A DNA stretch of 64,000 nucleotides from Minisyncoccota bacterium. GTDB taxonomy: Bacteria > Patescibacteriota > Minisyncoccia > Phycocordibacterales > CAJBRS01. The notes beneath the pieces were generated by a model, which had not been told where the DNA came from, searched no databases, and saw nothing but the letters and a program-made list of their open reading frames with translations. The DNA is taken from assembly GCA_017881075.1 (NCBI GenBank), contig JADGRH010000003.1:64682-128681 (forward strand), read 5' to 3'. This document shows positions 219 through 30,464 of this stretch, piece by piece (position 1 is the first letter of the stretch; every line of letters begins with the position of its first letter). The translations under genes were made by a program, and so were the position numbers.

Positions 219-554
219 CTAAAAATGTATTAGTGGTTTAAATCCTAATTTATTTTGTAATATAAAACCAATTGTTATAAGCAGAATTGGTACAATAACT
301 CTGATGACGAATTTTGTCGTTTTAGAATTTAAATTAGGATAGATTTTTCTTAAATAATACCAAATAAAAGTTTCGTTTCTATCTTTACCCATTTCTATGT
401 GGGTTAAAATACATCCATCAATTATCCAATACTGAATTTGCAAAAGAATAACTCCCAAAATGATTATTTTCCAGCTAATAAGTAAAGGTGAAAGATATGC
501 TGGTATTAACAGTAGTACATGTATCCAAAACCATAATCCAAATTCTTTTTTCAT
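219..554 (-). CDS. small hydrophobic membrane protein (start trimmed to internal Met so it does not overlap tRNA-Ser)
   Basis: ORF 219..653 minus; internal Met gives a 111-aa product with 3 predicted TM stretches; the untrimmed ORF would overlap the tRNA at 570..660. Confidence 0.3.
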   Translation of the reverse strand: MKKEFGLWFWIHVLLLIPAYLSPLLISWKIIILGVILLQIQYWIIDGCILTHIEMGKDRNETFIWYYLRKIYPNLNSKTTKFVIRVIVPILLITIGFILQNKLGFKPLIHF

Positions 555-569
555 AAATTTAAAATATAT

Positions 570-660
570 TGGCGGAGAGAGCGAGATTCGAACTCGCGGT
601 ACCCTTTCGAGCACACAGACTTTCCAGGTCTGCCCATTAAACCGCTCTGGCATCTCTCCA
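570..660 (-). tRNA. tRNA-Ser (anticodon GGA), type II with long variable arm, CCA encoded
   Basis: revcomp reads GGAGAGA.GCCAGAGCGG..; anticodon stem CAGAC/GTCTG with loop CTGGAAA; long variable arm; T-arm GCGAG-TTCGAAT-CTCGC; acceptor 3' CTCTCCG-CCA. Confidence 0.8.
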
Positions 661-858
661 AGATAATTAAAACTAACCTATTTTTGACACAAATTCAATT
701 CAGAGATGTCCGAAACGGGGTGTCGGACACCTCGTTTCGGACATTCAATTTGACTTGACAATAACTTCCATCAGGAGTAATTTCAAAAATAGATGATTGG
801 TCGAGTGATCAGCCAGTACTAAGACAAACCAAACAAGAACAAAAAAGAAAGGTTCATT

Positions 859-1455
859 GTGAACTTGAAGAAAAAAATAATGGTGTCCGTGGTAGCTGCC
901 GCGATAGTGGTGGCCACTATGGGGATTAGTGAGCATTTCCTTAACCAAGCAGAGATTCGCTTCAATCAACGACAGGAAGCAGAACTTGGCGCCAAACAGT
1001 TTCGTCAGGATGTCCAGCCGATGCTCGACAGCTTCTATTTTGAACACAACTTGCAGGCTGGAGACATGGCTCTTCATGCGGTGGCGTTGGAGAGGGCTCG
1101 TCTCGCAACCTACTACCATGGCGGCTTCGCCCATTACTTATGGGAATCGAATGACCCGATTGACCAAAAGAATGTTCCTCTCGTCGTTATGGCCCGGGAC
1201 AATCTACAACAGTATGTGATCGTCTCTGGAAAGATAACCTATCTGAAAGATGGTGATTGTCAGGAAGAACTCCGATTGGTTATCTATACCTTCCCGCACA
1301 AGAAAGGTGATCCACGACGTCGCGTTGACGAAAATGGGCAAGTGAGTGCCTTTATTAACGAAAAATGGCTCGTCGATCTGGATCAAACTCTTGCAGACAA
1401 AATCCGGGCCCAAGCTTATCTGGCACTTATTGATCGACCGCTTCATATACTCTGA
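859..1455 (+). CDS. secreted/periplasmic hypothetical protein with N-terminal signal peptide
   Basis: 198-aa ORF; N-terminus MNLKKKIMVSVVAAAIVVATMG is signal-peptide-like; GC richer than flanks. Confidence 0.5.
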   Translation: MNLKKKIMVSVVAAAIVVATMGISEHFLNQAEIRFNQRQEAELGAKQFRQDVQPMLDSFYFEHNLQAGDMALHAVALERARLATYYHGGFAHYLWESNDPIDQKNVPLVVMARDNLQQYVIVSGKITYLKDGDCQEELRLVIYTFPHKKGDPRRRVDENGQVSAFINEKWLVDLDQTLADKIRAQAYLALIDRPLHIL

Positions 1456-1583
1456 TGGATGTAGTCGGCGCCCATACTTCAAGTCCTTCACAACGCGACG
1501 TTGTGGAGGCTTTTTATTTTCCTCATGAAATTTTTTTAAAGTTTTGGTTTGAATAATCCTCGGCGATAGGCGATACTCTATCC

Positions 1584-3242
1584 ATGACTCAAGCAGAAGC
1601 ACTGGATATCTTAAAGATGGGACACAATGTATTTATCACCGGCGCAGCTGGAAGTGGCAAAACTCACACTCTGCGTGCCTATATTGATTATTTGAACAAG
1701 AGCAATGCGAGCGTTGCCATTACCGCATCCACGGGAATTGCGGCTACGCACATTGGTGGTAGCACCATTCACTCATGGAGCGGCCTGGGAGTCCGCGATT
1801 CTCTTTCCGAGCAGGACTTAAGTGAAATGGAAGAGCGACAATATCTCTGGCGACGATATGATCAAGTAAGGATTTTAATAATTGATGAAGTTTCAATGCT
1901 CCATCATTTTCGATTTGATCTTTTGGATAAAATTTGCCGATTTTTCAAAAGAAACGATGCCCCCTTCGGGGGCATGCAAATAGTGCTTTGCGGTGACTTC
2001 TTCCAACTGCCGCCAGTCACCATAATGGGGGAGCCGGAGGCAAGCTTCATTCATAAATCAGATGTTTGGGAAGAGATGAATTTGAAGATCTGCTATCTCT
2101 CCGAACAGCATCGCCAAAATATTGAAGACGAATATTTTAAAATCCTAAATGAGATCCGCGGGAATGATGTCGGCACGGATACATACGAACTCCTACAATC
2201 CCGTCTTAACCAAGAATCCGAATCAAAAATTCCGCCGACTCGTCTCTACACTCACAACATTGATGTTGATGCCGTGAATAACCGCGAGCTCGGAAAGATT
2301 GCGGGGGAGGCAAAAATTTACGCCATGTCTTCCAAAGGAAGGGCCGCTATAGTGGAGACTTTGAAAAAGAGTTGTCTTTCACCGGAGAAACTTTCTCTTA
2401 AAATTGGAGCCAAAGTAATGTTCGTTAAAAATAATTTTGAGAAACATTATGTTAATGGAACATTGGGGATAGTTGTGGCTTATGATTCAGCCGGTTATCC
2501 TATTGTGGAAACTCTTTCTGGAAAGAGGATACTGGCCACACCGGAGAGCTGGATGATAGAAGAAGAGGGCAAGATTAAAGCCGAGATCAATCAAGTGCCG
2601 CTCCGGCTCGCCTGGGCTATTACTGTGCATAAAAGCCAAGGAATGAGCCTTGATGCGGCAGAAATGGACCTATCAAAATCTTTCATTAAAGGGATGGGAT
2701 ATGTGGCTCTTTCGCGAGTGCGTAGTTTAAAAGGCTTGAAGCTACTCGGTATCAATCAAATGGCTCTGCGAGTAGATGAAGGTGTTTTTGAATACGATCA
2801 AACTCTCCGATCACTTTCAAAACAAAGCCAAAGTGAGTTAAAGAAGATGACCGCAAGCGAAATGAAAAAAGAGCAGGGAGAATTTCTGGCGAAAGTTGCT
2901 GGCTCCAAAAAAATTAAGGAAGAAAAAATAGCCACTCATCACAAAACCAAAAATCTTTTGCTCCAGAAGCTCTCTTTGGAAGAAATGGCAGAGGCGCGTG
3001 GGATGACCACCGAGACTATTGTCAGTCATATTGAGAAATTACTAGAGGAAGATCCGTCGTTTGATGTTCAGTATCTTTTCAATGCTAATTTTACTGATGA
3101 GCGTTTTCAGAAAATTGAAAAAGCTTTTGAAAAATCTTTAGCCAAGAATGGCGACTATCGTTTGGCGCCGGTGCGAGGTCTGCTTGGGCCCGATTTTGAT
3201 TATTTGGAACTGCGCATAGCGAGGTTGTTTTTGGGAAAGTAG
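1584..3242 (+). CDS. PIF1/RecD-family ATP-dependent DNA helicase
   Basis: Walker A GAAGSGKT, LIIDEVSM (motif II), FFQLPPV, AITVHKSQG, C-terminal HhH-like tail; typical PIF1-like SF1B motif order. Confidence 0.8.
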   Translation: MTQAEALDILKMGHNVFITGAAGSGKTHTLRAYIDYLNKSNASVAITASTGIAATHIGGSTIHSWSGLGVRDSLSEQDLSEMEERQYLWRRYDQVRILIIDEVSMLHHFRFDLLDKICRFFKRNDAPFGGMQIVLCGDFFQLPPVTIMGEPEASFIHKSDVWEEMNLKICYLSEQHRQNIEDEYFKILNEIRGNDVGTDTYELLQSRLNQESESKIPPTRLYTHNIDVDAVNNRELGKIAGEAKIYAMSSKGRAAIVETLKKSCLSPEKLSLKIGAKVMFVKNNFEKHYVNGTLGIVVAYDSAGYPIVETLSGKRILATPESWMIEEEGKIKAEINQVPLRLAWAITVHKSQGMSLDAAEMDLSKSFIKGMGYVALSRVRSLKGLKLLGINQMALRVDEGVFEYDQTLRSLSKQSQSELKKMTASEMKKEQGEFLAKVAGSKKIKEEKIATHHKTKNLLLQKLSLEEMAEARGMTTETIVSHIEKLLEEDPSFDVQYLFNANFTDERFQKIEKAFEKSLAKNGDYRLAPVRGLLGPDFDYLELRIARLFLGK

Positions 3243-3310
3243 TCTTGAAAGGAATTGAACAAAAACCAAAACTAAGTAATAATGGAATGGTTATATAATA
3301 AATCAAAACA

Positions 3311-3730
3311 ATGAGCGAAAAATTTGAACCAAATCCATTGACTCCTGAAACACCTCCTGAGAAATCGATTCAGAGACTTGCTGAAGAGATTTACAAGAAG
3401 AGACCAAAGGATGGCCCTATGATTATTATGGATGTGGACGAGACAAAAAGAGAAGCTCTTTTGACTGCAGTGTCAGTGCTCTGTAAGACTGGTGAAGTTG
3501 AGGAACCAATGCCTCCAATATTTTTTGTTAACGATAAAGAAGATCTTGCTTCATTAGCCCCGAAATTAGTGGATGACGAAAGCACAATAAGACAAGCAAT
3601 GGAAAAACTTCAGCTCGCCGATTTTCCCGAACCAATCTTAGTCGATGAGAAACCTCCAGAACCATGGCACCCAAAAGCTAAACATCCTCCCTGGGAAAAA
3701 CGTCCCAAGAAAAAAGGAAGGAGAAAATAA
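3311..3730 (+). CDS. hypothetical protein, Pro/Lys-rich C-terminus
   Basis: 139-aa ORF immediately upstream of the TrmB-like gene (8-nt gap), probably co-transcribed. Confidence 0.45.
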   Translation: MSEKFEPNPLTPETPPEKSIQRLAEEIYKKRPKDGPMIIMDVDETKREALLTAVSVLCKTGEVEEPMPPIFFVNDKEDLASLAPKLVDDESTIRQAMEKLQLADFPEPILVDEKPPEPWHPKAKHPPWEKRPKKKGRRK

Positions 3731-3737
3731 ATAAAAA

Positions 3738-4505
3738 ATGGCTCAAAATTTATATCAGTTTTTAAAAAACATAGGCATTTCTCAAAAAGAGGTAAATGTT
3801 TACATCTATCTTTTGTCGGTGGAATCAGCTCTGCCAATGGAAATTGCTAAGGAGACCAATCTTAAGAGGTCCACTGTATATGTAATCCTCGAACTCCTAA
3901 AAGAGAAAGGGTTAGTGCGCGAGGTAGAGCGAGGCAAACGCTCCGCCTATATCTCGGAAGACCCGGAAAGAATCAGATTTCTTTTGGAACAACTTCGACT
4001 TCAGACGGAAAATAGTATTAAGGGATTGAATATCATAATTCCTCAACTGAAAGCCACTCTTCGAAAAGAAGGGGAGCCGCCACTGATCAGATTCTTTGAA
4101 GGAGAAAAAGCGGTTCAGGTCTCAATGGAGGAATTGGCGGACAATCCTAAATTTAGAAAAGAGTTAAATTATGATGTTTTTCCACTTGAGCTAATCTATA
4201 AATTATTCCAGAGAAAGAATTTGCGAAAATATATTAATCTTCGCATTCATAACAATGAAAACTTCAAAATCCTCTATACATCAGATGAAGGAGGGTTAAC
4301 CAACGCGGAGACACACGGACAAGAAGCGATCAAGATTGACCAAAAAGAATTTCCTCTATCATGTGACATCGCCATCTTTGAAGATGAGGTTAGAATTCAT
4401 ATGTTGGGTAAACCTATTTACGGCATATTGATTAAAAACTTGGAATTGGCCCAGACTCTCACTAGTATTATCAAATTGGCAATAAAAGGAGCCAAGGTAA
4501 ATTAG
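3738..4505 (+). CDS. TrmB-family winged-helix transcriptional regulator
   Basis: N-terminal HTH pattern Y.FLK..G.S..E..VY.YLL......EIA.ET.L.RSTVY.IL..L.EKGLV typical of TrmB; ~255 aa. Confidence 0.6.
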   Translation: MAQNLYQFLKNIGISQKEVNVYIYLLSVESALPMEIAKETNLKRSTVYVILELLKEKGLVREVERGKRSAYISEDPERIRFLLEQLRLQTENSIKGLNIIIPQLKATLRKEGEPPLIRFFEGEKAVQVSMEELADNPKFRKELNYDVFPLELIYKLFQRKNLRKYINLRIHNNENFKILYTSDEGGLTNAETHGQEAIKIDQKEFPLSCDIAIFEDEVRIHMLGKPIYGILIKNLELAQTLTSIIKLAIKGAKVN

Positions 4506-4858
4506 GCAAATATTTCTCATACAGATTGTTTCAATTATCTAGTAAGAATTAGACAATTATTGTATTTAGTTTGTTAAAACAGGCCTGATTACCCAATTCT
4601 TTTGTTATATATAAACATTTTCTACTTAAAATGAGAGCAACAATTCTTACTCGTCTAATCATCATTGACACTTATTGTCACTTGCTCTAATTTTACATCA
4701 GAAACAGTTTTTTGACAGCCGGCACGGGCTTCCACTTACAGTTTCGCCGGCCTTCTTCACAGCTCGGAGGGGAATTCATTAATGCCCTCCAAGCTGTGAT
4801 CTGCGTTCAAATGGACGTGGAAGGCTAGCAAAACCAAGTAAATAAGGAGAAATAAGTT

Positions 4859-6139
4859 ATGAGTATACGTTTCGTTATCTCAGTTATGTTGGTTGGCCTT
4901 TACATGGCCATATCAATCCTGTATCCAGTAGCCCAAGGCCCGATCGAAGGAAAGATCGCGGCCAGTATGGTCCAAGATAGTGATGCGTCTTATGCAGCGG
5001 CTCACGCCCTGCTCACGACGCATTCGCCGATAACCATTATCGGTTGGGCAGTGTTCATAGCATTGCTCGTCATCTGGGTGCCAGTTTTACGGCGCGCCCT
5101 CAAGCGCCCCACTAAAACGGCAGCGACATTTCTCGGGTGTATCGCCTTTTTGGCGACCATTCTCACCACGGGATGTGTGGGACCTTATAAGGTAGAGAAG
5201 TTCGAGACCATCGAATCAAACGAGACGGCCTTCGTCGTTCCCTTGGAGGGTGCGACGCTCGCCAATCAAGCGAAGTTCATGTCTATCGACTATCTCAATT
5301 CGCCTGAAGTGAAAGTGGCGACCAAGCGGATCACTATTCCGCAACGGCAACGCGACACAGGACGGGTGGCCGGTAATTACGAATGGATTGACACCGTTCG
5401 CGTCATCAAGGTAAACCGGGCGCCTATCACCAGACAGTGGGTGAAGGCCTCAACACAAGGCACTTCTAAATCCGACGAGGCCATCGAGGTGGAGTCTAAA
5501 GAGTCAATCGACTTCTACACCGGAGCGGTCTGCAGCGGGTTTATCGCTGAAGAGGATGCGGCAAGGTTCCTCTATTATTTCGCCGGGAAACCTTTAAGCG
5601 AAGTGATGGACGAGAACGTACGCGGGTATGTTCAAAACCTGATGTGGGTGGAGTTTGGTACGCGGGACTTGACCGCTGCCAAAGAGGCCAAGAAAGAGAT
5701 CATGGATGCGGTTTCCAAATCGACGAAGGAGTTCTACTCCAAGCAAGGGATAACGATCTCTTACGTCGGTGGAGCTGAAGGTCTGACCTACAAGGATCCA
5801 AAGATCCAAGAATCCATCAACTCGGCCTTCATCGCCGAGAATGACCGCAAAGTGGCGGATCAGGAGAATCAGGCCCAAACGATTAGGAATACCAAATTGG
5901 TTTCCATCGCTACAGCACAGCGTCAGGCGGCTGAAGAGTTCGCCAAAGCGCAGAATGCCATGATTGCCAAGACCCAGCTCGAGATCCAAATGAAGCAGGC
6001 AGACGCCATGCTGGAGATCGCGCATAACTCGCACGGCATCAGCATCCAACCGGGTGCGATCTTGTCTGAAGGGTCGCCCTTCCTGTTTGGCCTGGATAAG
6101 GTCACGGGAGCTCGGCCGCCGGTCACTGCAAATAAGTAA
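4859..6139 (+). CDS. membrane-anchored SPFH/band-7-like protein (inferred), GC-rich
   Basis: N-terminal TM segments; C-terminal Ala/Gln/Glu-rich coiled coil resembling HflC/K tails; visibly higher GC than the backbone; SD AGGAGA upstream. Confidence 0.45.
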   Translation: MSIRFVISVMLVGLYMAISILYPVAQGPIEGKIAASMVQDSDASYAAAHALLTTHSPITIIGWAVFIALLVIWVPVLRRALKRPTKTAATFLGCIAFLATILTTGCVGPYKVEKFETIESNETAFVVPLEGATLANQAKFMSIDYLNSPEVKVATKRITIPQRQRDTGRVAGNYEWIDTVRVIKVNRAPITRQWVKASTQGTSKSDEAIEVESKESIDFYTGAVCSGFIAEEDAARFLYYFAGKPLSEVMDENVRGYVQNLMWVEFGTRDLTAAKEAKKEIMDAVSKSTKEFYSKQGITISYVGGAEGLTYKDPKIQESINSAFIAENDRKVADQENQAQTIRNTKLVSIATAQRQAAEEFAKAQNAMIAKTQLEIQMKQADAMLEIAHNSHGISIQPGAILSEGSPFLFGLDKVTGARPPVTANK

Positions 6140-10353: not shown

Positions 10354-10390
10354 ACCTGAACAAAAATTGAAGATTTAATGAATTTGTGGG

Positions 10391-10750
10391 ATGATTTTTA
10401 ATATGACTAAGATTGAGGATCTGATTACAAGAGTGACTGCATTTAGAGATGATAGAGACTGGAAACAGTTCCATAATCCCAAAGATAATGCTATCGGATT
10501 AGTTCTGGAAGCCTCGGAGGTTTTAGAGCTATTCCAGTGGAAAAATAAAGAAGAAATTGACAAGTATATAAAATCACATAGCGAAAATATTTCTGACGAA
10601 CTAGCGGATGTTATGTATTGGGTTTTATTAATGTCACATGACTTGAATATTGATATCGGAAAGGCTATAGAAAAGAAACTTAAGAAAACAGAAGAAAAAT
10701 ACCCTATAGAAAAATCCAAAGGTAATCATAAGAAGTACACAGAACTTTAA
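10391..10750 (+). CDS. MazG-like nucleotide pyrophosphohydrolase
   Basis: DWKQFHNPKDNAIGLVLEASEVLELFQW followed by ELADVMYW .. L: MazG/NTP-PPase EExxE-type helix pair; 119 aa. Confidence 0.7.
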   Translation: MIFNMTKIEDLITRVTAFRDDRDWKQFHNPKDNAIGLVLEASEVLELFQWKNKEEIDKYIKSHSENISDELADVMYWVLLMSHDLNIDIGKAIEKKLKKTEEKYPIEKSKGNHKKYTEL

Positions 10751-10754
10751 TCTT

Positions 10755-12608
10755 ATGATTCTATATAAAAATAATCTAAAGGATTTTAAAATTCACGTTG
10801 ATACTAATCAGATCGGGGATTTAATCGAGAAATCTTTTAGAGAAAAATTAGGGCACAAAGTTGCTCCAAATGAAAAAAGGTCATGGACTAATTCTATGTC
10901 GTTTATGGAGAAAATAGTCAGAAGGGCTGATCTTTCGGATACTTGCGGAGTTATGTTGGAATATATTATTCCAAACACTTCTAACAGAATCGACTTTTTA
11001 ATTTCCGGGGAAGACGAGAAAGGGAACAAGAATTTTATAATTATTGAATTGAAACAATGGGAAACATCAGAATCTACTGATAGAGATGGTGTAGTAAGGA
11101 CTTTTGTGGGAGGAGGAGTACGCGAAACTACGCACCCATCTTACCAGGCCCATTCCTATAAATTGTTTTTAAGTGACTACAATGAAAATATTGATTCTGG
11201 CATTCTTTCACCATACGCTTGCGCGTATCTGCATAATTATAAAGAGCGGAGTCCGGAGCCTCTAAAGGCTCAAATATATGAATCTGTTATTAAGGTAGCG
11301 CCAGTTTATTTTAAGGACGATTATGAAAAATTGGAGCAGTTTTTGCATAATTATGTTAGGTTCGGAAAAGGAGAAGAAATCTTGTATCAAATTGAAGCCG
11401 GCAGAATAAAACCTAGCAAAAAACTTATTGAGCATATTCAAAAAATGTATGAAGGAAACCAGGAATTTATATTACTGGATGAGCAAAAGGTGGCATATGA
11501 GACAGCTCGATCTGTAGCAAAGAAAGTTAAAGAAAAATCTGTCGTAATTATAAAAGGTGGTCCAGGGACGGGTAAATCTGTAATCTCAATGAATTTATTG
11601 GGAAGCCTATTAAAGGATGAACTTAATGTAAACTTTATTGCCCCTAACTCTGCCTTTAGAGAAGTAATGATTCATAGATTAGCAAGGAAGGAGACTAAAT
11701 TAAGGTTAAAAAACTTGTTTAAAGGCTCTGCTGGTTTTGTAAATGCCAAGAAAGACACATTTGATACTTTAATAGTGGATGAAGCACATAGATTAAAGAA
11801 AAAAGGTGCTTATCAATACAAGGGGATAAATCAGATAGAAGATATCGTTAATTCTGCTAGAACGTCTATCTTTTTTGTCGATGATAATCAGATGATTCGT
11901 CCAGACGATATAGGTTCAGTTCAGGAGATTAAAAGAGTGGCTGATAAAAATAAGGCAAGAATTTATGAAATAGAATTAGTCGCCCAATTTAGGTGTGCTG
12001 GGGCAGAAGGTTATCTTAATTGGCTCGACAATACATTACAGATTAAAGAGACAGCGAATTTTGATGGATGGGAGCAAAAAGATTTTGAGTTTAAGATTTT
12101 TAATGATCCTAACGACTTAAGGAAAATGATAAAAGAAAAGCATGATAAAGGATTTAATGCTCGAATTCTTGCTGGCTATGCTTGGAAGTGGACAAGTGTA
12201 GGGGAGGGCAATAAAAGTGGAGAAGTTGAAGATGTCTTAATCCCCGAATTCGATTTCAAAATGCCGTGGAATGCTCGACAAATTGGAACAACTTGGGCGG
12301 TTGATCCAAAAGGTATTGATCAGGCAGGATGCATTCATACTTCACAAGGTCTGGAATTTGACTACGTTGGAGTTTTGGTAGGCAATGATTTACGTTTTGA
12401 TTCCAAAAAACTTGACTACCATGCTCACTGGGTATCCTACAAAGATACGACGGGGAAAAAAGGGCTGAAAAATAACCCGGAAGAATTAACTAAATTAGTA
12501 AAAAATATCTACAAGGTTCTTATGAGCAGGGGTATGAAGGGATGCTATGTTTATTTTACTGACAAAGAAATGGAGAGATATTTTAAATCACGCTTAGGTA
12601 TCAAATAA
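10755..12608 (+). CDS. nuclease-helicase: N-terminal PD-(D/E)xK-like fold + P-loop SF1-like NTPase + DUF2075-type C-terminal region (Schlafen-helicase / Nhi-like architecture)
   Basis: N-term RIDFLI .. IIELKQWE (D .. ExK); Walker A VVIIKGGPGTGKSVIS; Walker B/DEAH LIVDEAHRL; 4-nt gap after the MazG-like gene (operon). Confidence 0.65.
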   Translation: MILYKNNLKDFKIHVDTNQIGDLIEKSFREKLGHKVAPNEKRSWTNSMSFMEKIVRRADLSDTCGVMLEYIIPNTSNRIDFLISGEDEKGNKNFIIIELKQWETSESTDRDGVVRTFVGGGVRETTHPSYQAHSYKLFLSDYNENIDSGILSPYACAYLHNYKERSPEPLKAQIYESVIKVAPVYFKDDYEKLEQFLHNYVRFGKGEEILYQIEAGRIKPSKKLIEHIQKMYEGNQEFILLDEQKVAYETARSVAKKVKEKSVVIIKGGPGTGKSVISMNLLGSLLKDELNVNFIAPNSAFREVMIHRLARKETKLRLKNLFKGSAGFVNAKKDTFDTLIVDEAHRLKKKGAYQYKGINQIEDIVNSARTSIFFVDDNQMIRPDDIGSVQEIKRVADKNKARIYEIELVAQFRCAGAEGYLNWLDNTLQIKETANFDGWEQKDFEFKIFNDPNDLRKMIKEKHDKGFNARILAGYAWKWTSVGEGNKSGEVEDVLIPEFDFKMPWNARQIGTTWAVDPKGIDQAGCIHTSQGLEFDYVGVLVGNDLRFDSKKLDYHAHWVSYKDTTGKKGLKNNPEELTKLVKNIYKVLMSRGMKGCYVYFTDKEMERYFKSRLGIK

Positions 12609-12658
12609 TTTATCTTTATTTTAGCGTTGCTTCATGATACACATGGTAGGTTGTCGTC

Positions 12659-12820
12659 ATGAAGAAACAAAAGATCAAAGATAGTGACAACGCCTATTTA
12701 ATAAGCAGTAACAACTATGAAGACGATAATTGCCCCATCTGCAATCTAATGAGGCGATGTGAAATAGAGGAAAGAGAACCCACCTCACAAGAGATTAAAG
12801 AGGTGATGAAATTTAAATGA
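12659..12820 (+). CDS. small CxxC zinc-ribbon-like protein (53 aa), speculative
   Basis: MKKQKIK .. CPICNLMRRC ..; not in the ORF track (under 60 aa); AT-rich. Confidence 0.25.
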   Translation: MKKQKIKDSDNAYLISSNNYEDDNCPICNLMRRCEIEEREPTSQEIKEVMKFK

Positions 12821-12910
12821 TCCTATTTATGCACGGCCTTTATCTAAAAAATGGCCAATGGACCAAAGAGAGAGCAGTAAAAATATCTGCGTATCATTTC
12901 ACTTATGGAT

Positions 12911-12932
12911 AATCCGGCCTGCTCTGCCACGC
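12911..12932. repeat. left arm of 22-bp terminal inverted repeat AATCCGGCCTGCTCTGCCACGC
   Basis: revcomp matches 13320..13342 at 21/22; shares the AATCCGGCC core with the three cassette terminators. Confidence 0.6.
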
Positions 12933-13319
12933 TTGTATTGCCCTCTACTTTTTTTATGGCATACTTAAAAAAGAAATCCATGACAGACCTAATCTGATCT
13001 TTAAATATAAACCCTATTTTGCAGGTATGAAGAGACAATAAAGCATCGATTAAAAAATAATATGACCAATAAATATAGCAATAATCTTGTTACATAGAAT
13101 TTCAAATTTACTTAAAATATGGCTCTAATCAAGAACTAATTAAGATATGCACAGCTTATCCACTGGTAAGCTATTTACAAAACTGCTAGATTATGATACA
13201 TTAAGAGAGGAATATTTCTTTTTCCCCTCTTGCTGATTATAATAAGCTTTTCTTTCATAATAGGAAAAATAATATTAGCTAAATACTTGACTCCAAAAAT
13301 TTTGGAGAGTATTATGCAA

Positions 13320-13342
13320 GCGCGGCAGAGCAGGCCGGATTA
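13320..13342. repeat. right arm of the 22-bp inverted repeat GCGCGGCAGAGCAGGCCGGATTA
   Basis: see 12911..12932; arms flank ~390 bp of AT-rich non-coding DNA. Confidence 0.6.
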
Positions 13343-13359
13343 TCAATAAATTAAATTAT

Positions 13360-13761
13360 ATGACCAACGACAAATCTTTTTTGGAGGATCTCTATACTGA
13401 CAGTGGGGGATTCGACCGCGAACGGGTAGTGCGGGTGCTCCAAACCATACTAACCATTCAGCGGGGCGACCATAAAGTCTTCTTTAAAAAAGAGGCAACA
13501 CTAGAAGCTGCGGACAAAATTTTGGCTTATGCGTTAGTAAAAAAGCTTTTAAAGACAGAGGGGGTAACTGAAACGAGTAGTGTCTCGGGAAAGGAACTGA
13601 AGAAGCAAACGGGTGTAAAGTCCGGGACGGTCGATTTTACAATTAAAAAACTTAAAGAGGAAGATGGTCTGCTTGTTGGCAGCGGTAGCAATTATGAAAT
13701 ACCAGCACACAAAGTTGAAGACATCTTAGAGCGTCTTGAAAAATGCGCTTCCAAAAAATAA
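13360..13761 (+). CDS. hypothetical protein with C-terminal winged-HTH-like motif
   Basis: SVSGKELKKQTGVKSGTVDFTIKKLKEEDGLLVG resembles a wHTH recognition helix/wing; first gene of a tight 4-gene operon. Confidence 0.4.
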   Translation: MTNDKSFLEDLYTDSGGFDRERVVRVLQTILTIQRGDHKVFFKKEATLEAADKILAYALVKKLLKTEGVTETSSVSGKELKKQTGVKSGTVDFTIKKLKEEDGLLVGSGSNYEIPAHKVEDILERLEKCASKK

Positions 13762-14206
13762 ATCTATGGAAAATAACATAAAAAAAATACTCGGAGAAAT
13801 ACTCACATCCATAAAGAGCCTTGAAAAACGAGTTACTCTCATAGAAAGCAAGACACCGAGCATGAGTACACCATCACATGATCTTCCCATTGCCTCGAAG
13901 AAGATGTCGATAAAGGAGTTCCTAATTGATCGCTCTCCAGCAAATGGAGTACAAACAACTCTCGCGGTCGCATATTATCTAGAAAAATATGACAAGATCT
14001 CGCCATTTAATGCCAGTGACATAGAGAAAGCATTTCGTTCCGCTAAGGAACCAGTGCCCAACAATATCAATGATAAAGCAAATATGTGTATTAAAAATGG
14101 TCATTTAATGGAAGGAGAGGATAAGAAAGACAATATGAAAGCGTGGGTAGTCACTCGAAGCGGAGAACAATACGTTCAGGAAAAATTTGATCGTTATAGT
14201 CATTAA
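13736..14206 (+). CDS. hypothetical protein; C-terminal domain shared with the next gene
   Basis: 26-nt overlap with the upstream gene; C-terminal pattern (hydrophobic stretch .. SPFNASD .. K.G .. KAWVVTRSGEQY) parallels 14236..14784. Confidence 0.4.
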   Translation: MKNALPKNKSMENNIKKILGEILTSIKSLEKRVTLIESKTPSMSTPSHDLPIASKKMSIKEFLIDRSPANGVQTTLAVAYYLEKYDKISPFNASDIEKAFRSAKEPVPNNINDKANMCIKNGHLMEGEDKKDNMKAWVVTRSGEQYVQEKFDRYSH

Positions 14207-14235
14207 AAATAAAATTATTCACTAATATAAATATT

Positions 14236-14784
14236 ATGTCTGAAGCAGAAATAGTAGAAATCGTAGGGAAAATTGTTACTGCACTCACTCCTCTTTCTCA
14301 TGAGGAACGACAGAGGGCGGTGCAAGCGTCTTTAAATGTATTTGGTGAATCCATGCTCAGGTCTACACAAAGAAAAGACGAACTCAATGAAATTCCCTCT
14401 GCATTTAGTGAACGCGCGCGGATATGGATTAAACAGAACGAGCTTTCTTTGGAAAATTTAGAACAAATTTTTCATATTACTGATACTGGAGCAGAATTGA
14501 TTATTCAAGAAGTGCCGGGAGGAAAGGATAACAAACCCAGGGTGCTAAATGTGTATGTTCTTTCTGGCGTAGCTTCCCTACTCACCTCAGAAAATTCTAA
14601 TTTCGACGACAAAGTTGCAAGAACCATATGTGAATCATTTGGATGTTACGATCCAACAAATCACACTAAATACCTAAAGAAAAGTAAATTCTTTACAGGA
14701 TCCAAAAAAACAGGATGGACCTTGACTGCTCAGGGTTTAAAACATGCAGCCATGTTAGTTAGAGAACTGAGTAAGCCCCAATAG
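14236..14784 (+). CDS. hypothetical protein; C-terminal domain paralogous to the previous gene
   Basis: C-terminal .. VYVLSGVASLL .. NFDDKVARTI .. TGWTLTAQGLKHAA aligns with the preceding protein's tail. Confidence 0.4.
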   Translation: MSEAEIVEIVGKIVTALTPLSHEERQRAVQASLNVFGESMLRSTQRKDELNEIPSAFSERARIWIKQNELSLENLEQIFHITDTGAELIIQEVPGGKDNKPRVLNVYVLSGVASLLTSENSNFDDKVARTICESFGCYDPTNHTKYLKKSKFFTGSKKTGWTLTAQGLKHAAMLVRELSKPQ

Positions 14785-14786
14785 AT

Positions 14787-15527
14787 ATGATTTTCACATT
14801 TAAAAATATTCCGATCAATCTTTCTGAAAAATTGGTTGAGGAATACTTGGAAATAAAGAAACGCCATTCAATGAGTGATTGGGGCCCAAGTCAATTAAAA
14901 GGCGGTAGATTTGCAGAAGCTATGTTACGCATTTTCCAACATTTGCTCGGTATTTCTATTACACCATTTGGGACCAACATTCCAAACAAAGACCGTATTT
15001 TAAATGCTGTAAAAATTCACCCGTCATTGGATGACCACATTCGTCAAAAAGTAGCACCTCTTATAAGACTTCTTCTAGATTTTCGTAATAATCGAGATGT
15101 AGCACACCTCGGAGGATTCAATGCAAATAGCATGGATACTCTTTTTGTGATGACAACAGCGACATGGATTTTGTGTGAACTGATCCGTGTTTATGGAGGG
15201 CAAAGTATGGACACCGCTCAAAAACTAGTAGACTCACTTTCCGTTAAAGAGTATCCAGTGCTAATGGAGTTCGAAGGAGAGCTCTTTATTACTCGACACA
15301 ATCTCAACGCAGAACAAGAAGTGCTAATATTTTTGTATAAAAATCGTAAAGCAGGCTACAATTTTTTGTCTTCAAAGACAAAGGACAGCAATTCTTCACG
15401 TTTTAAGAAAATTTTAGAGAAAATGGTTGCGGTAAAGTTCATTGGCAGCAAGGCAAATCAGTACTTTATCATGCCTCGTGGAATCGAGCGTGTAGAAAAA
15501 GAACGCTTATTGATCTATTCAAACTAG
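14787..15527 (+). CDS. hypothetical protein with HEPN-like R-x6-H motif (RNNRDVAH), candidate RNase
   Basis: 3-nt gap from the previous gene; motif LLLDFRNNRDVAHLGGF fits the HEPN Rx4-6H signature within a predicted helical context; inference only. Confidence 0.35.
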   Translation: MIFTFKNIPINLSEKLVEEYLEIKKRHSMSDWGPSQLKGGRFAEAMLRIFQHLLGISITPFGTNIPNKDRILNAVKIHPSLDDHIRQKVAPLIRLLLDFRNNRDVAHLGGFNANSMDTLFVMTTATWILCELIRVYGGQSMDTAQKLVDSLSVKEYPVLMEFEGELFITRHNLNAEQEVLIFLYKNRKAGYNFLSSKTKDSNSSRFKKILEKMVAVKFIGSKANQYFIMPRGIERVEKERLLIYSN

Positions 15528-15612
15528 GAATCAACAAGGCCAAGGCTGTTTTTTATATCTATTTCATCTTTTCTTCATAAATTTTTCATATTTAAAATGT
15601 TATGATGTGTGA

Positions 15613-16083
15613 ATGCAAAAGGACTTTACCTTTCAATTAATAAAGGGAAAAATCAGCGAAACTATATTTGATCAGATGTTTCGAGAAGCAGGGGAGTTTA
15701 CAGTTATCCCCTTTGGTTATGAAGCTTTAGTCCCGGAAATTGCTCAGCTTGCTCGTTCATTAGAACGCAAGGAAGTTCTGGACTCAATTAGGAATAGTCC
15801 TGATTTTGCACTGGTCTCTCATAGTCAGAAAAAGGTATTTCTAGTTGAAGTGAAATATAGGTCGCATTTACACGAAGATGACGTGTTAAATATTGCTCAG
15901 ATGGTTCACGACAGATGGAAACTAGCGTGGTTGTTCATTGCTACTCCGGAAGGATTCTATTTTGATAGTTGCTCGGATGTCTTAAATACTAAGACCATTA
16001 ATAAACTTAAACCAACATGGATCAATGCCGAACTCCAGGAAAAGTATTTAGCAGTAATGAATAAGTTTCAAGTTAACCATTAA
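15613..16083 (+). CDS. PD-(D/E)xK restriction-endonuclease-fold protein
   Basis: E(A)L .. PDFALVSH .. VFLVEVKYR = canonical E .. PD .. (D/E)xK arrangement; 156 aa. Confidence 0.5.
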   Translation: MQKDFTFQLIKGKISETIFDQMFREAGEFTVIPFGYEALVPEIAQLARSLERKEVLDSIRNSPDFALVSHSQKKVFLVEVKYRSHLHEDDVLNIAQMVHDRWKLAWLFIATPEGFYFDSCSDVLNTKTINKLKPTWINAELQEKYLAVMNKFQVNH

Positions 16084-16102
16084 GTAGAGGTAAGAATTTC
16101 TT

Positions 16103-16861
16103 ATGTTCTCAGATCCAATCATTGAAAATTTAAAGTATTACGTTTATATACTTGTTGATCCGAGCAATAATAAGCCTTTTTATATTGGAAAAGGAATAGG
16201 AAATAGGGTTTTTTCCCATCTAAAAAATGAAATTGAAGACGAGTCTAAGATTTCATTAAAACAAGCGCTTATTAAAAATATTCAGGATCAAGGGAAAGAT
16301 GTTGAGATATACATAGTACGACACGGTTTAAATGAGAAGGAGGCATTTGAGATTGAGGCGACACTTATTGATTTTATCCAACTTAGAAATCTTACTAATG
16401 AAATAGTAGAGCACGACTATAAGGAAGAAATACCAGCTAAAAATCTGGCTAATATTGTTTTAGGACATCATGCGGGAGAAAGGGGGCTTATGACGCTAAA
16501 TGAAATACTCCAGTTGTATGGTGCAGAAGAGGCTAATATTACCGACCCAGTAATAATAATTAATATAAATCGAAAATATAAACGGGGCATGAGTCCGAAT
16601 GAAATATATGAAGCAACTCGAGCATCTTGGGTCATAAGCAAAGATAGGTCACAGAAAGCTAAATTTGTTCTCGCATCATTTCGTGGAATAGTAAAAGAAG
16701 TTTTCTATGTTAATCATTGGCAACAATCTAAGAATTCAAACCGCTTAGAATTTGAAGGAGGTGTTGCTCAGTTAGAGATTGCTGAAAAATATAGAAACAA
16801 AGCTATAACTAATTATTTGAAGACGGGGGCACAAAACCCAATTAGATACGTAAATTGTTAG
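16103..16861 (+). CDS. GIY-YIG nuclease domain protein with ~150-aa C-terminal extension
   Basis: YYVYILVDPSNNKPFYIGKGIGNRVFSH .. E (GIY/YIG with Arg, His and Glu); 20-nt gap after the PD-(D/E)xK gene. Confidence 0.6.
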   Translation: MFSDPIIENLKYYVYILVDPSNNKPFYIGKGIGNRVFSHLKNEIEDESKISLKQALIKNIQDQGKDVEIYIVRHGLNEKEAFEIEATLIDFIQLRNLTNEIVEHDYKEEIPAKNLANIVLGHHAGERGLMTLNEILQLYGAEEANITDPVIIININRKYKRGMSPNEIYEATRASWVISKDRSQKAKFVLASFRGIVKEVFYVNHWQQSKNSNRLEFEGGVAQLEIAEKYRNKAITNYLKTGAQNPIRYVNC

Positions 16862-16963
16862 ATTAAATTGTACTATTCTCATGCCAGATGAATTGGAAAA
16901 TCAGGAATTAAAGGGGTCAGAAGTCATTTTTATATTAAATTTTATCTTTCTGTTGTATTAATC

Positions 16964-17107
16964 ATGGACTCCGATGAAATCTTAGAATTAGTTAAAGATG
17001 GCGTGATAGAGCCGGATCAGGTGGAAGATTTTCAGAATTTGGATGAGGAGATCCAGCAAATGGTGGCGGATGGGGATTTGGATGCAGATGAGGCGTTGAG
17101 TTTATAA
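16964..17107 (+). CDS. 47-aa highly acidic small protein (MDSDEILELVKDGVIEPDQVEDFQNLDEEIQQMVADGDLDADEALSL)
   Basis: not in the ORF track (under 60 aa); strongly acidic; sits between the GIY-YIG and NYN genes. Confidence 0.3.
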   Translation: MDSDEILELVKDGVIEPDQVEDFQNLDEEIQQMVADGDLDADEALSL

Positions 17108-17157
17108 ATTTATCTTTTCTTGACGGGGAATTCATCTGCAAGTTCTATTCTATATGA

Positions 17158-17661
17158 GTGGAAAATGAGTTTAAGAATCTTGCTTTTATAGATGGACAGA
17201 ATCTGTATATGGGTACGTCAAAGCGAGAGATCGATCCGTGGGAAATTAACCTTACCCGATTCTGTGTATATCTGGATGAAAAATACAATGTCGGTAATGC
17301 CTATTATTTTTTAGGATATGTGCAGGAGGCAAATCAAGAACTCTACGAAGAAATACAAAAGGCTGGTTTCTTGCTAGTATTTCGAGAACATAATCCAGCG
17401 ATGATTGGGAAGAAAAAAGGAAATGTGGATTCAGATATTGTCTTTCATGTCATGAAAAATCTATACAAGAAAGAGAATTTTAAAAAGATAATCCTTGTTT
17501 CTGGAGATGGTGACTATAAATTACTGGTTGATTTTTTGATAGCAGAGAACCGATTCGAGAAGATATTGTTTCCGAATAGAGAATTTGCGTCTTCTTTGTA
17601 CAAGAAACTCGGTTCGGAATATTTTGATTACTTAGAAAATATAAAGACATATATCACATAA
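17158..17661 (+). CDS. NYN-domain (PIN-like, LabA/YacP-like) ribonuclease
   Basis: AFIDGQNLY .. D .. VSGDGDY signature of NYN domains; terminator hairpin follows at about 17671..17708. Confidence 0.7.
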   Translation: MENEFKNLAFIDGQNLYMGTSKREIDPWEINLTRFCVYLDEKYNVGNAYYFLGYVQEANQELYEEIQKAGFLLVFREHNPAMIGKKKGNVDSDIVFHVMKNLYKKENFKKIILVSGDGDYKLLVDFLIAENRFEKILFPNREFASSLYKKLGSEYFDYLENIKTYIT

Positions 17662-17823
17662 AAAGAAAAGGGCTCCTAAGGCACTTACACCTTTCGGATC
17701 CCTTTTCGTCTGAATATTTAAATAATATCGAAATCTGCGAATCTGTCAAACCAAAACTTCATAAATTCTTTATATGAAAGCACCTTTTATGTTAATATGG
17801 AATAAATAATCATCTTTAAACCT

Positions 17824-30009: not shown

Positions 30010-30061
30010 GAGTCATTAAACGGACTTGTCTTATTTAAAAAATTTTATATAATAGACTCTT

Positions 30062-30453
30062 CTTGAATCGGGTAATTGCTCCGCCACCTAAAAAGGGCGG
30101 GGAGGAAAGTCCGAACACAGGCCCTTCACCAAAATTGGTGAAGGGAAGAGTAGCGGGTAATACCCGTCTGGAGCAATCCACGAGGTGCGAACAGAGACGA
30201 ACCGGTTAAGTCCGGGTGAAACGGCTAAATCCTTACTTCTGTGCAAGGCCGCGCGCCAATTTTGTCCGCTAGAGGCGGTTACAAAATTGAGCGTCCCGAG
30301 ATTTTCGAGGGATTGATCCTTCGACAAGCTCAGGGCACTCAATCTTGCAGCCACCTGCAGTGGGCAAGATTGGTGAGTGCCGCTTGACTCCGAGAGTAAT
30401 CGAGGAGCTAGATAAATAATTATCGATAACAGAATTCGGCTTATAGATTCAAG
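30062..30453 (+). ncRNA. rnpB: RNase P RNA (bacterial type A)
   Basis: P4 GGAGGAAAGTCCG.ACACAGG and 3' ACAGAATTCGGCTTAT conserved blocks; P1 pairing CTTGAATC/GATTCAAG; the minus-strand ORF 30088..30504 is spurious. Confidence 0.85.
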
Positions 30454-30464
30454 AAGACAAATCA

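Follow-up and report, generated by a model that had tools for sequence, protein, structure and literature searches.

In a 64,000-nucleotide (nt) stretch of contig JADGRH010000003.1 from a Minisyncoccota bacterium, which we call the window, four small co-directional genes, g1 to g4, are packed between 13360 and 15527 (Table 1). A previous reading of the letters alone (the sequence-only reading) had proposed them as a candidate new system combining binder- or sensor-type proteins with a HEPN-type effector. Our results support such a candidate system. As to its role, we lean tentatively, at somewhat less than an even chance, toward a horizontally mobile toxin or abortive-infection conflict module, in which g4 would be a HEPN ribonuclease (RNase) effector and its neighbors fast-evolving regulator or sensor partners. 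We prefer this reading because two g4 residues, R100 and H107, are invariant, g2 is linked to g4 nearly universally, the gene junctions are tight and a g4::g2 fusion exists in nature; because the effector is conserved and its partners are divergent, variable and duplicated, with decayed copies and a patchy distribution over phyla; and because restriction-modification, recombinase or SMODS genes are found beside several loci, in addition to the defense island of the window.

We modeled the predicted effector with AlphaFold2 (35 sequences, predicted local distance difference test score, pLDDT, of 83). The g4 model has an N-terminal four-helix bundle (about amino acids (aa) 10–150, with helices at aa 10–28, 38–53, 68–77, 83–98, 113–137, and 141–150), after which come a beta-hairpin and a MarR/PadR-like three-helix winged helix (about aa 155–240, the three-helix part at aa 175–238). 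In the model, the bundle can be superposed on a HEPN protein of solved structure and has the all-alpha, up-down four-helix fold of this class. HEPN enzymes are described in general as carrying an Rx4-6H motif between helices 3 and 4 (PMC3710099). The RNNRDVAH string reported by the sequence-only reading is indeed present in g4, and R100-x6-H107 falls in the loop that joins helix 3 (aa 83–98) to helix 4 (aa 113–137), where the last core HEPN helix begins. All of 35 close and 46 diverse g4 relatives keep R100 and H107; over the latter, which are at 22%–39% identity, E44, D117, E131, and G232 are invariant too, and conservation reaches 90% or more at F42, N101, R103, W127, and R134. A word-index search returned 257 g4 homologues at 50%–68% identity, none of them informatively named or carrying a Pfam domain. 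When 1.84 billion cluster representatives were searched with a profile, 877 proteins matched at E ≤0.001, each standing for a cluster at 50% identity, and nearly all of them are 245–270 aa long and matched end to end.

We then considered which genes accompany g4 elsewhere. Among the loci scanned (21 genomic and 49 metagenomic), partners were counted with iterated hidden Markov models (HMMs) made from the window g1, g2, and g3, over the 49 non-redundant loci whose upstream sequence extends for 1.3 kb or more. Results showed a g2-family gene beside g4 in 45 of these 49 loci, with two or more paralogues in 14, whereas g3 was found in 20 and g1 in 16, the latter mainly of the candidate phyla radiation (CPR) type. 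The complete g1-g2-g3-g4 set also occurs in one metagenome contig (L036). Considering these frequencies together with the distant relatives, it is g4 together with the g2 family that forms the conserved unit, and g3 and g1 are accessory. In a test set in advance, the operon proved to be kept as a unit elsewhere through its g2-family partner; the claim that all four genes form a conserved unit holds for L036, with g1 and g3 reduced to an accessory status. Alphaproteobacteria show the arrangement g3-g2-g4; in many CPR loci, g4 is accompanied by g1, by the gene of a fourth helix/winged-helix protein (110 aa) and by a g2-like gene. Between partner and g4, the gap is 2–4 nt or the genes overlap.

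Distant g4 relatives, at 22%–39% identity, also retain a partner. The g2 family was found beside those of L075, L078, L079, L082, and L086: L078 has g1 and two g2 genes, L086 has three g2 paralogues, and in L075 and L079 a divergent g2 lies on the opposite strand or downstream of g4. The partner is a g3-like gene in L076, and in L084 it clears the Pfam cut-off of Penicillinase_R, a BlaI-type winged helix (2.5e-5). In L082, a g4 homologue and the g2 C-terminal domain (E 8e-13) are naturally fused in the protein P0156 (344 aa; 4087–5121), and a separate g2-family gene follows at 5184–5735. We also noted that the L084 homologue sits in an integrase-bounded islet (227–5393) with its BlaI-type partner upstream, and that genes for an unrelated 197-aa protein, membrane-like by its sequence, and for SMODS nucleotidyltransferases lie downstream of g4.

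Median identity to the window proteins decreases from 62% for g4 to 44% for g2, 42% for g3, and 30% for g1. Split or truncated copies of g3 or g4 are found at L008 4902–5373, L016 6034–6630, L022 6001–6748, and L023 1653–2366, consistent with loss of a costly gene. Named hosts belong to the Hyphomicrobiales (including Bradyrhizobium, Afipia, and Hyphomicrobium) and to the CPR (including Saccharibacteria, Paceibacteria, Parcubacteria, and Campbellbacteria). A plasmid scan gave one weak g4 match, on the haloarchaeal plasmid PL131, and the module was found neither in IMG/VR viral contigs nor in phage genomes. Some of the related loci adjoin MmeI, Eco57I, type ISP or Mrr-methyltransferase genes, serine or tyrosine recombinase genes, or SMODS genes.

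The partner proteins appear to be built on one plan. From its sequence, g2 is predicted to have an N-terminal coiled-coil helix, a low-complexity linker and a C-terminal winged-helix-like domain of about 90 aa; its profile matched PDB entries weakly, namely GCN4-type coiled coils over aa 6–40 and the winged helices of AspA and BlaI over aa 80–146. A search with a joined g2+g3 profile retrieved six g3 proteins and none of g2. The g3 model, whose alignment comprised 8 rows only, shows an N-terminal two-helix hairpin, then a disordered linker (aa 37–51) and a small alpha/beta unit, and ends in a winged helix (aa 99–178), so that the three-helix bundle with a beta-hairpin wing that defines the winged helix-turn-helix (HTH) fold is found among the partners. 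Within the g3 winged helix, C132 is invariant, N142-H143 nearly so, and C137 is conserved in part of the family; these residues may mark a site for a ligand, a metal or redox chemistry. The sequence-only reading had g2 and g3 ending in the same domain of about 80 aa. The likeness is there, yet the profile match is faint (E 0.019 over 34 columns, 0.0077 over 60 columns), g3 ending in a winged helix in its model and g2 matching AspA and BlaI weakly; the likeness is best taken to mean that both ends share a general class of fold. Similarly, a winged HTH at the end of g1 had been claimed, and the sequence pattern of its C-terminal half (about aa 55–125) agrees with it, but the statistics are weak (HTH_11, E 0.023; MarR PDB chains, E 0.06). 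g1 also aligns colinearly with the C-terminal domain of g4 (hhalign, E 0.01, 79 columns). On the Natronomonas pharaonis plasmid PL131 (L081 4941–5813), the C-terminal region of a 290-aa g4-like protein is matched by the g1 HMM (7.5e-8), and this match hints that g1 may be the g4 C-terminal domain copied as a separate gene.

In the mechanism that we propose, g4 would be a HEPN-fold RNase joined to a winged helix and probably dimeric, as HEPN enzymes usually are. Each partner, always g2 and optionally g3 or g1, would contribute an oligomerizing helix and a winged helix connected by a flexible linker, and the tight or overlapping junctions would have the partners made in a fixed ratio to g4, with which they would assemble. 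In the resting state, the partners would hold the g4 RNase silent and possibly also repress the promoter of their own operon. A trigger, likely a foreign nucleic acid or a phage protein recognized by the fast-evolving winged helices, would displace, titrate or degrade them, and the freed g4 would cut cellular or viral RNA, so that growth stops. We infer all four elements of this scheme: the RNase activity, the complex formation, the inhibition by the partners and the nature of the trigger. A more far-reaching proposal, possible in our view but doubtful, is that these loci represent a widespread unrecognized immune class, in which a conserved HEPN/winged-helix RNase would be combined with combinatorial, fast-diversifying small coiled-coil winged-helix adaptors, numbering one to four in each operon, frequently paralogous and at times fused, and acting together as a multivalent sensor of foreign nucleic acid. 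If this were true, specificity would be changed by swapping adaptors and not the effector.

Several results weigh against a conflict module with a HEPN effector. First, no sequence match in Pfam, NCBIfam or PDB connects g4 to a HEPN family profile, a Foldseek search of the g4 model against PDB returned nothing significant (just insignificant winged-helix matches), and the motif loop is poorly modeled, with pLDDT below 50 at aa 104–107. For these three reasons we call g4 "HEPN-like by fold and motif"; the HEPN-type assignment of the sequence-only reading is thus retained for fold and motif and finds no support from sequence profiles. Abi_C, which we take to be the AbiJ-type HEPN model, gave weak matches in 3 of the 46 diverse relatives (best E 0.042). 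Second, in PADLOC-DB v2.0 nothing better than E 0.029 was obtained for g1–g4, and nothing recurrent for the 46 relatives. Third, an identity of 50%–68% for g4 across bacterial phyla is unusually high for a defense protein. Finally, in the 34 loci examined for context, the neighbors are mostly housekeeping genes (uvrA, MFS transporters, metW) with a handful of defense genes, and outside the window defense-gene neighbors are sporadic.

A plain toxin-antitoxin or addiction module, which would stabilize its islet and sense no phage, draws on the same effector and partner evidence. In such a module g4 would be a HEPN toxin and one or more labile winged-helix proteins antitoxins repressing the promoter, and the many copies standing alone among housekeeping genes, outside defense islands, count in its favor. 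The upstream region of g1 also bears on it. The top promoter-like site of this region is a putative sigma-70-like promoter, TTGACT-17-TATTAT, a consensus match of 10 positions out of 12, and exactly within its spacer lies a perfect 8+1+8 palindrome, CTCCAAAAATTTTGGAG (13291–13307), a candidate operator that would suit autoregulation by a dimeric winged helix. But palindromes upstream of related operons showed no significant enrichment (13 of 52 loci, or 25%, against 17% in control windows; p = 0.09), and we dropped the idea of an operator common to the related loci. Moreover, toxin-antitoxin modules normally have two genes and here one to four partners, often paralogous, are found; known HEPN toxins pair with MNT antitoxins, and no nucleotidyltransferase domain of the MNT antitoxin kind was detected in g1–g3 or in 41 g2-family members. 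We consider this explanation rather unlikely.

Other features surround this upstream region. The DNA immediately upstream of g1 contains an imperfect inverted repeat of 68 nt, with arms at 12892–12959 and 13293–13360 that are 76% complementary and 333 nt apart; the second arm holds the best promoter-like site of the operon, both arms encode ...AEQAGLSI..., and one is within a 64-aa minus-strand open reading frame (ORF; 12844–13038). Pfam assigns no family to this ORF, and a proposal that the repeat arms are TetR-type HTH fragments was not supported by Pfam. In addition, a direct repeat, AAAT[A/T]ATATGACCAA, occurs at 13055–13069, where it starts just a 12-codon ORF, and at 13353–13367, where it includes the g1 start codon; it may be a duplication remnant at the 5' end of the cassette.

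Less probable still, and in our opinion unlikely, is a non-toxic DNA- or RNA-binding complex, regulatory or architectural, belonging to a mobile element (centromere-, kite- or PCI-like), in which the g4 helices would be a scaffold or bind a ligand. Winged-helix-type domains in all four proteins would fit such a complex, as would the weak likeness to the centromere binders AspA and TubR, to the kite proteins MksE/Nse and to PCI-type subunits, the strong conservation of g4 between phyla, and the weakness of the defense-island signal. On the contrary, a mere scaffold is hard to reconcile with R100, H107, and three acidic residues being invariant throughout the family; the loci examined show neither a partition ATPase nor a replication gene linked to the operon; and the pseudogenized copies suggest a gene that is costly.

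The last alternative, in which the operon would belong to a larger, already known system of the neighboring genes (Nhi-like helicase, PD-T4-3 or MADS), is largely refuted and very improbable, since, despite the position of the operon in the window between an Nhi/AbiO/PDC-S41-like helicase gene and a PD-T4-3 GIY-YIG gene, none of the window neighbors recurs beside g4 elsewhere (a BLAST search with all island proteins matched only the identical contig L004), g1–g4 and the 46 diverse g4 relatives match no PADLOC model, and the PADLOC mad2, mad3, and mad8 matches adjoining six alphaproteobacterial loci are ordinary UvrA. MADS has mad6, mad7, and mad8 as mandatory genes (bioRxiv 10.1101/2023.03.30.534895). 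The mad-matching protein is encoded by one gene of about 1000 aa, convergent with g4, and a link with MADS was rejected because this protein is plain UvrA by Pfam (UvrA_DNA-bind and UvrA_inter). The three mad models match UvrA down to 1e-101 (L009, L010, L012, L032), a false-positive trap for automated MADS calls.

Returning to the toxin or abortive-infection module that we favor, candidate systems based on HEPN turn up often, and we compared g1–g4 with known families. No meaningful E-value match was found for any of the four proteins in Pfam, NCBIfam, PHROGs or PADLOC; none matches a nameable or housekeeping family, which was a second test set in advance. The literature on HEPN and winged helices that we consulted, including the HEPN census (PMC3710099), DefensePredictor and a BREX survey, does not describe this architecture. 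Among established HEPN RNase toxins are AbiJ, AbiD/F, AbiU2, and HepT/MNT (Anantharaman et al. 2013, PMC3710099). The present module resembles them in the predicted four-helix bundle of g4, with an invariant Rx6H at the junction of helices 3 and 4, and in being small, mobile and patchy, with an effector better conserved than its partners. It differs in that g4 has no significant Pfam match to HEPN, Abi or DUF86 and carries its winged helix C-terminal to the HEPN-like domain; in that coiled-coil/winged-helix proteins take the place of an MNT nucleotidyltransferase or AbiJ-type N-terminal domain as partners; and in the number of partners, one to four versus none or one. Models of AbiD/F, AbiJ, AbiU2, AbiV, and the AbiA C-terminus gave no Pfam or PADLOC match above noise for g4 and its 46 relatives.

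The CRISPR ancillary RNases Csm6 and Csx1 also unite a HEPN and a winged-helix-type domain in one polypeptide, and a sensor-gated RNase logic is likely common to both. Nevertheless, g4 has no CARF or Rossmann domain and its domain order is reversed. The sole match to a CARF model was that of g1, at an insignificant E of 0.029, and no cas genes were found in the window island or in related loci. The regulators AbiEi, BrxR/CapW, and those of BlaI/MecI type are likewise small winged-helix proteins encoded directly upstream of an effector, but g1–g3 match none of the AbiEi, WYL or BlaI families and are distinguished by an N-terminal coiled coil, a long disordered linker and several paralogous partners per operon. 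Lastly, giant defense proteins of the MTES_1575 type (HEPN, helicase, Vsr and winged helix) and EC042_2821 (winged helix, HEPN and restriction endonuclease) combine HEPN with winged helices, which have been proposed as direct recognizers of invading DNA (PMC3710099). Those are large multi-enzyme proteins with a helicase or a restriction endonuclease, whereas here the proteins are small and separate and there is no DNase.

Concerning the layout of the operon itself, the four tightly packed ORFs are present as reported, and each has same-operon homologues in many unrelated contigs, while some measures of the sequence-only reading need to be corrected. The 26-nt overlap of g1 and g2 relied on a TTG start at 13736; the N-termini of g2 homologues align with the ATG at 13766 (MENNIKKIL...) and not with the TTG, so that a 4-nt gap is more probable than an overlap. 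The following gaps, given as 30 and 3 nt, measure 29 nt between g2 and g3 and 2 nt between the g3 stop and the g4 ATG. Guanine-cytosine (GC) content, put at about 32%, is 38.7% for 13360–15527, compared with 35.8% in the surrounding island and 43%–44% in the flanks. A recognizable Shine-Dalgarno sequence was not seen in the 20 nt before any of the four starts (13340–13359, 13746–13765, 14216–14235, and 14767–14786), which may reflect the mode of translation initiation of the host. Elsewhere in the window, a bacterial class A RNase P RNA at 30060–30459 scored 113 bits against an Rfam gathering threshold of 100, and so narrow a pass suggests a divergent host lineage.

The operon lies in a low-GC island of about 10375–17700 that is rich in defense-type genes. 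Pfam and PADLOC matches confirmed the flanking genes that had been claimed, a nuclease-helicase-type gene upstream and three nuclease-fold genes downstream.

Table 1. Coordinates of the operon, its putative promoter and the neighboring genes in the window.
Feature	Position	Strand	Description
MazG-like gene	10391-10750		Island gene
DUF2075/Schlafen-group-3 helicase	10755-12608		617 aa; upstream of g1; matches Nhi, AbiO, and PDC-S41 models
Putative sigma-70-like promoter (TTGACT-17-TATTAT)	13287-13315	+	10/12 consensus positions; 45 nt upstream of g1
g1	13360-13761	+	ORF, 133 aa
g2	13766-14206	+	ORF, 146 aa from ATG; 156 aa from alternative TTG at 13736
g3	14236-14784	+	ORF, 182 aa
g4	14787-15527	+	ORF, 246 aa; predicted effector
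RNNRDVAH codons of g4	15084-15107	+	R100 to H107, Rx6H motif
TnsA-N-like PD-(D/E)xK protein	15613-16083		156 aa; 85 nt downstream of g4; weak match, E 0.0012, under Pfam cut-off
GIY-YIG protein	16103-16861		Downstream; matches PD-T4-3 (1e-53)
NYN protein	17158-17661		Downstream of operon

In conclusion, even if the operon were just an addiction module or a regulator, g4 and its partners would still constitute a well-defined uncharacterized family, worth a Pfam entry. If instead they form a working toxin or defense system, about 877 clusters at 50% identity belong to a family that no current annotation resource names, and the system would be among the few candidates common to CPR bacteria, Alphaproteobacteria, and haloarchaeal plasmids. 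Moreover, its unusual architecture, with several small helix and winged-helix partners and, in one case, a fusion to the effector, would make it a tractable model of HEPN RNase silencing and triggering.

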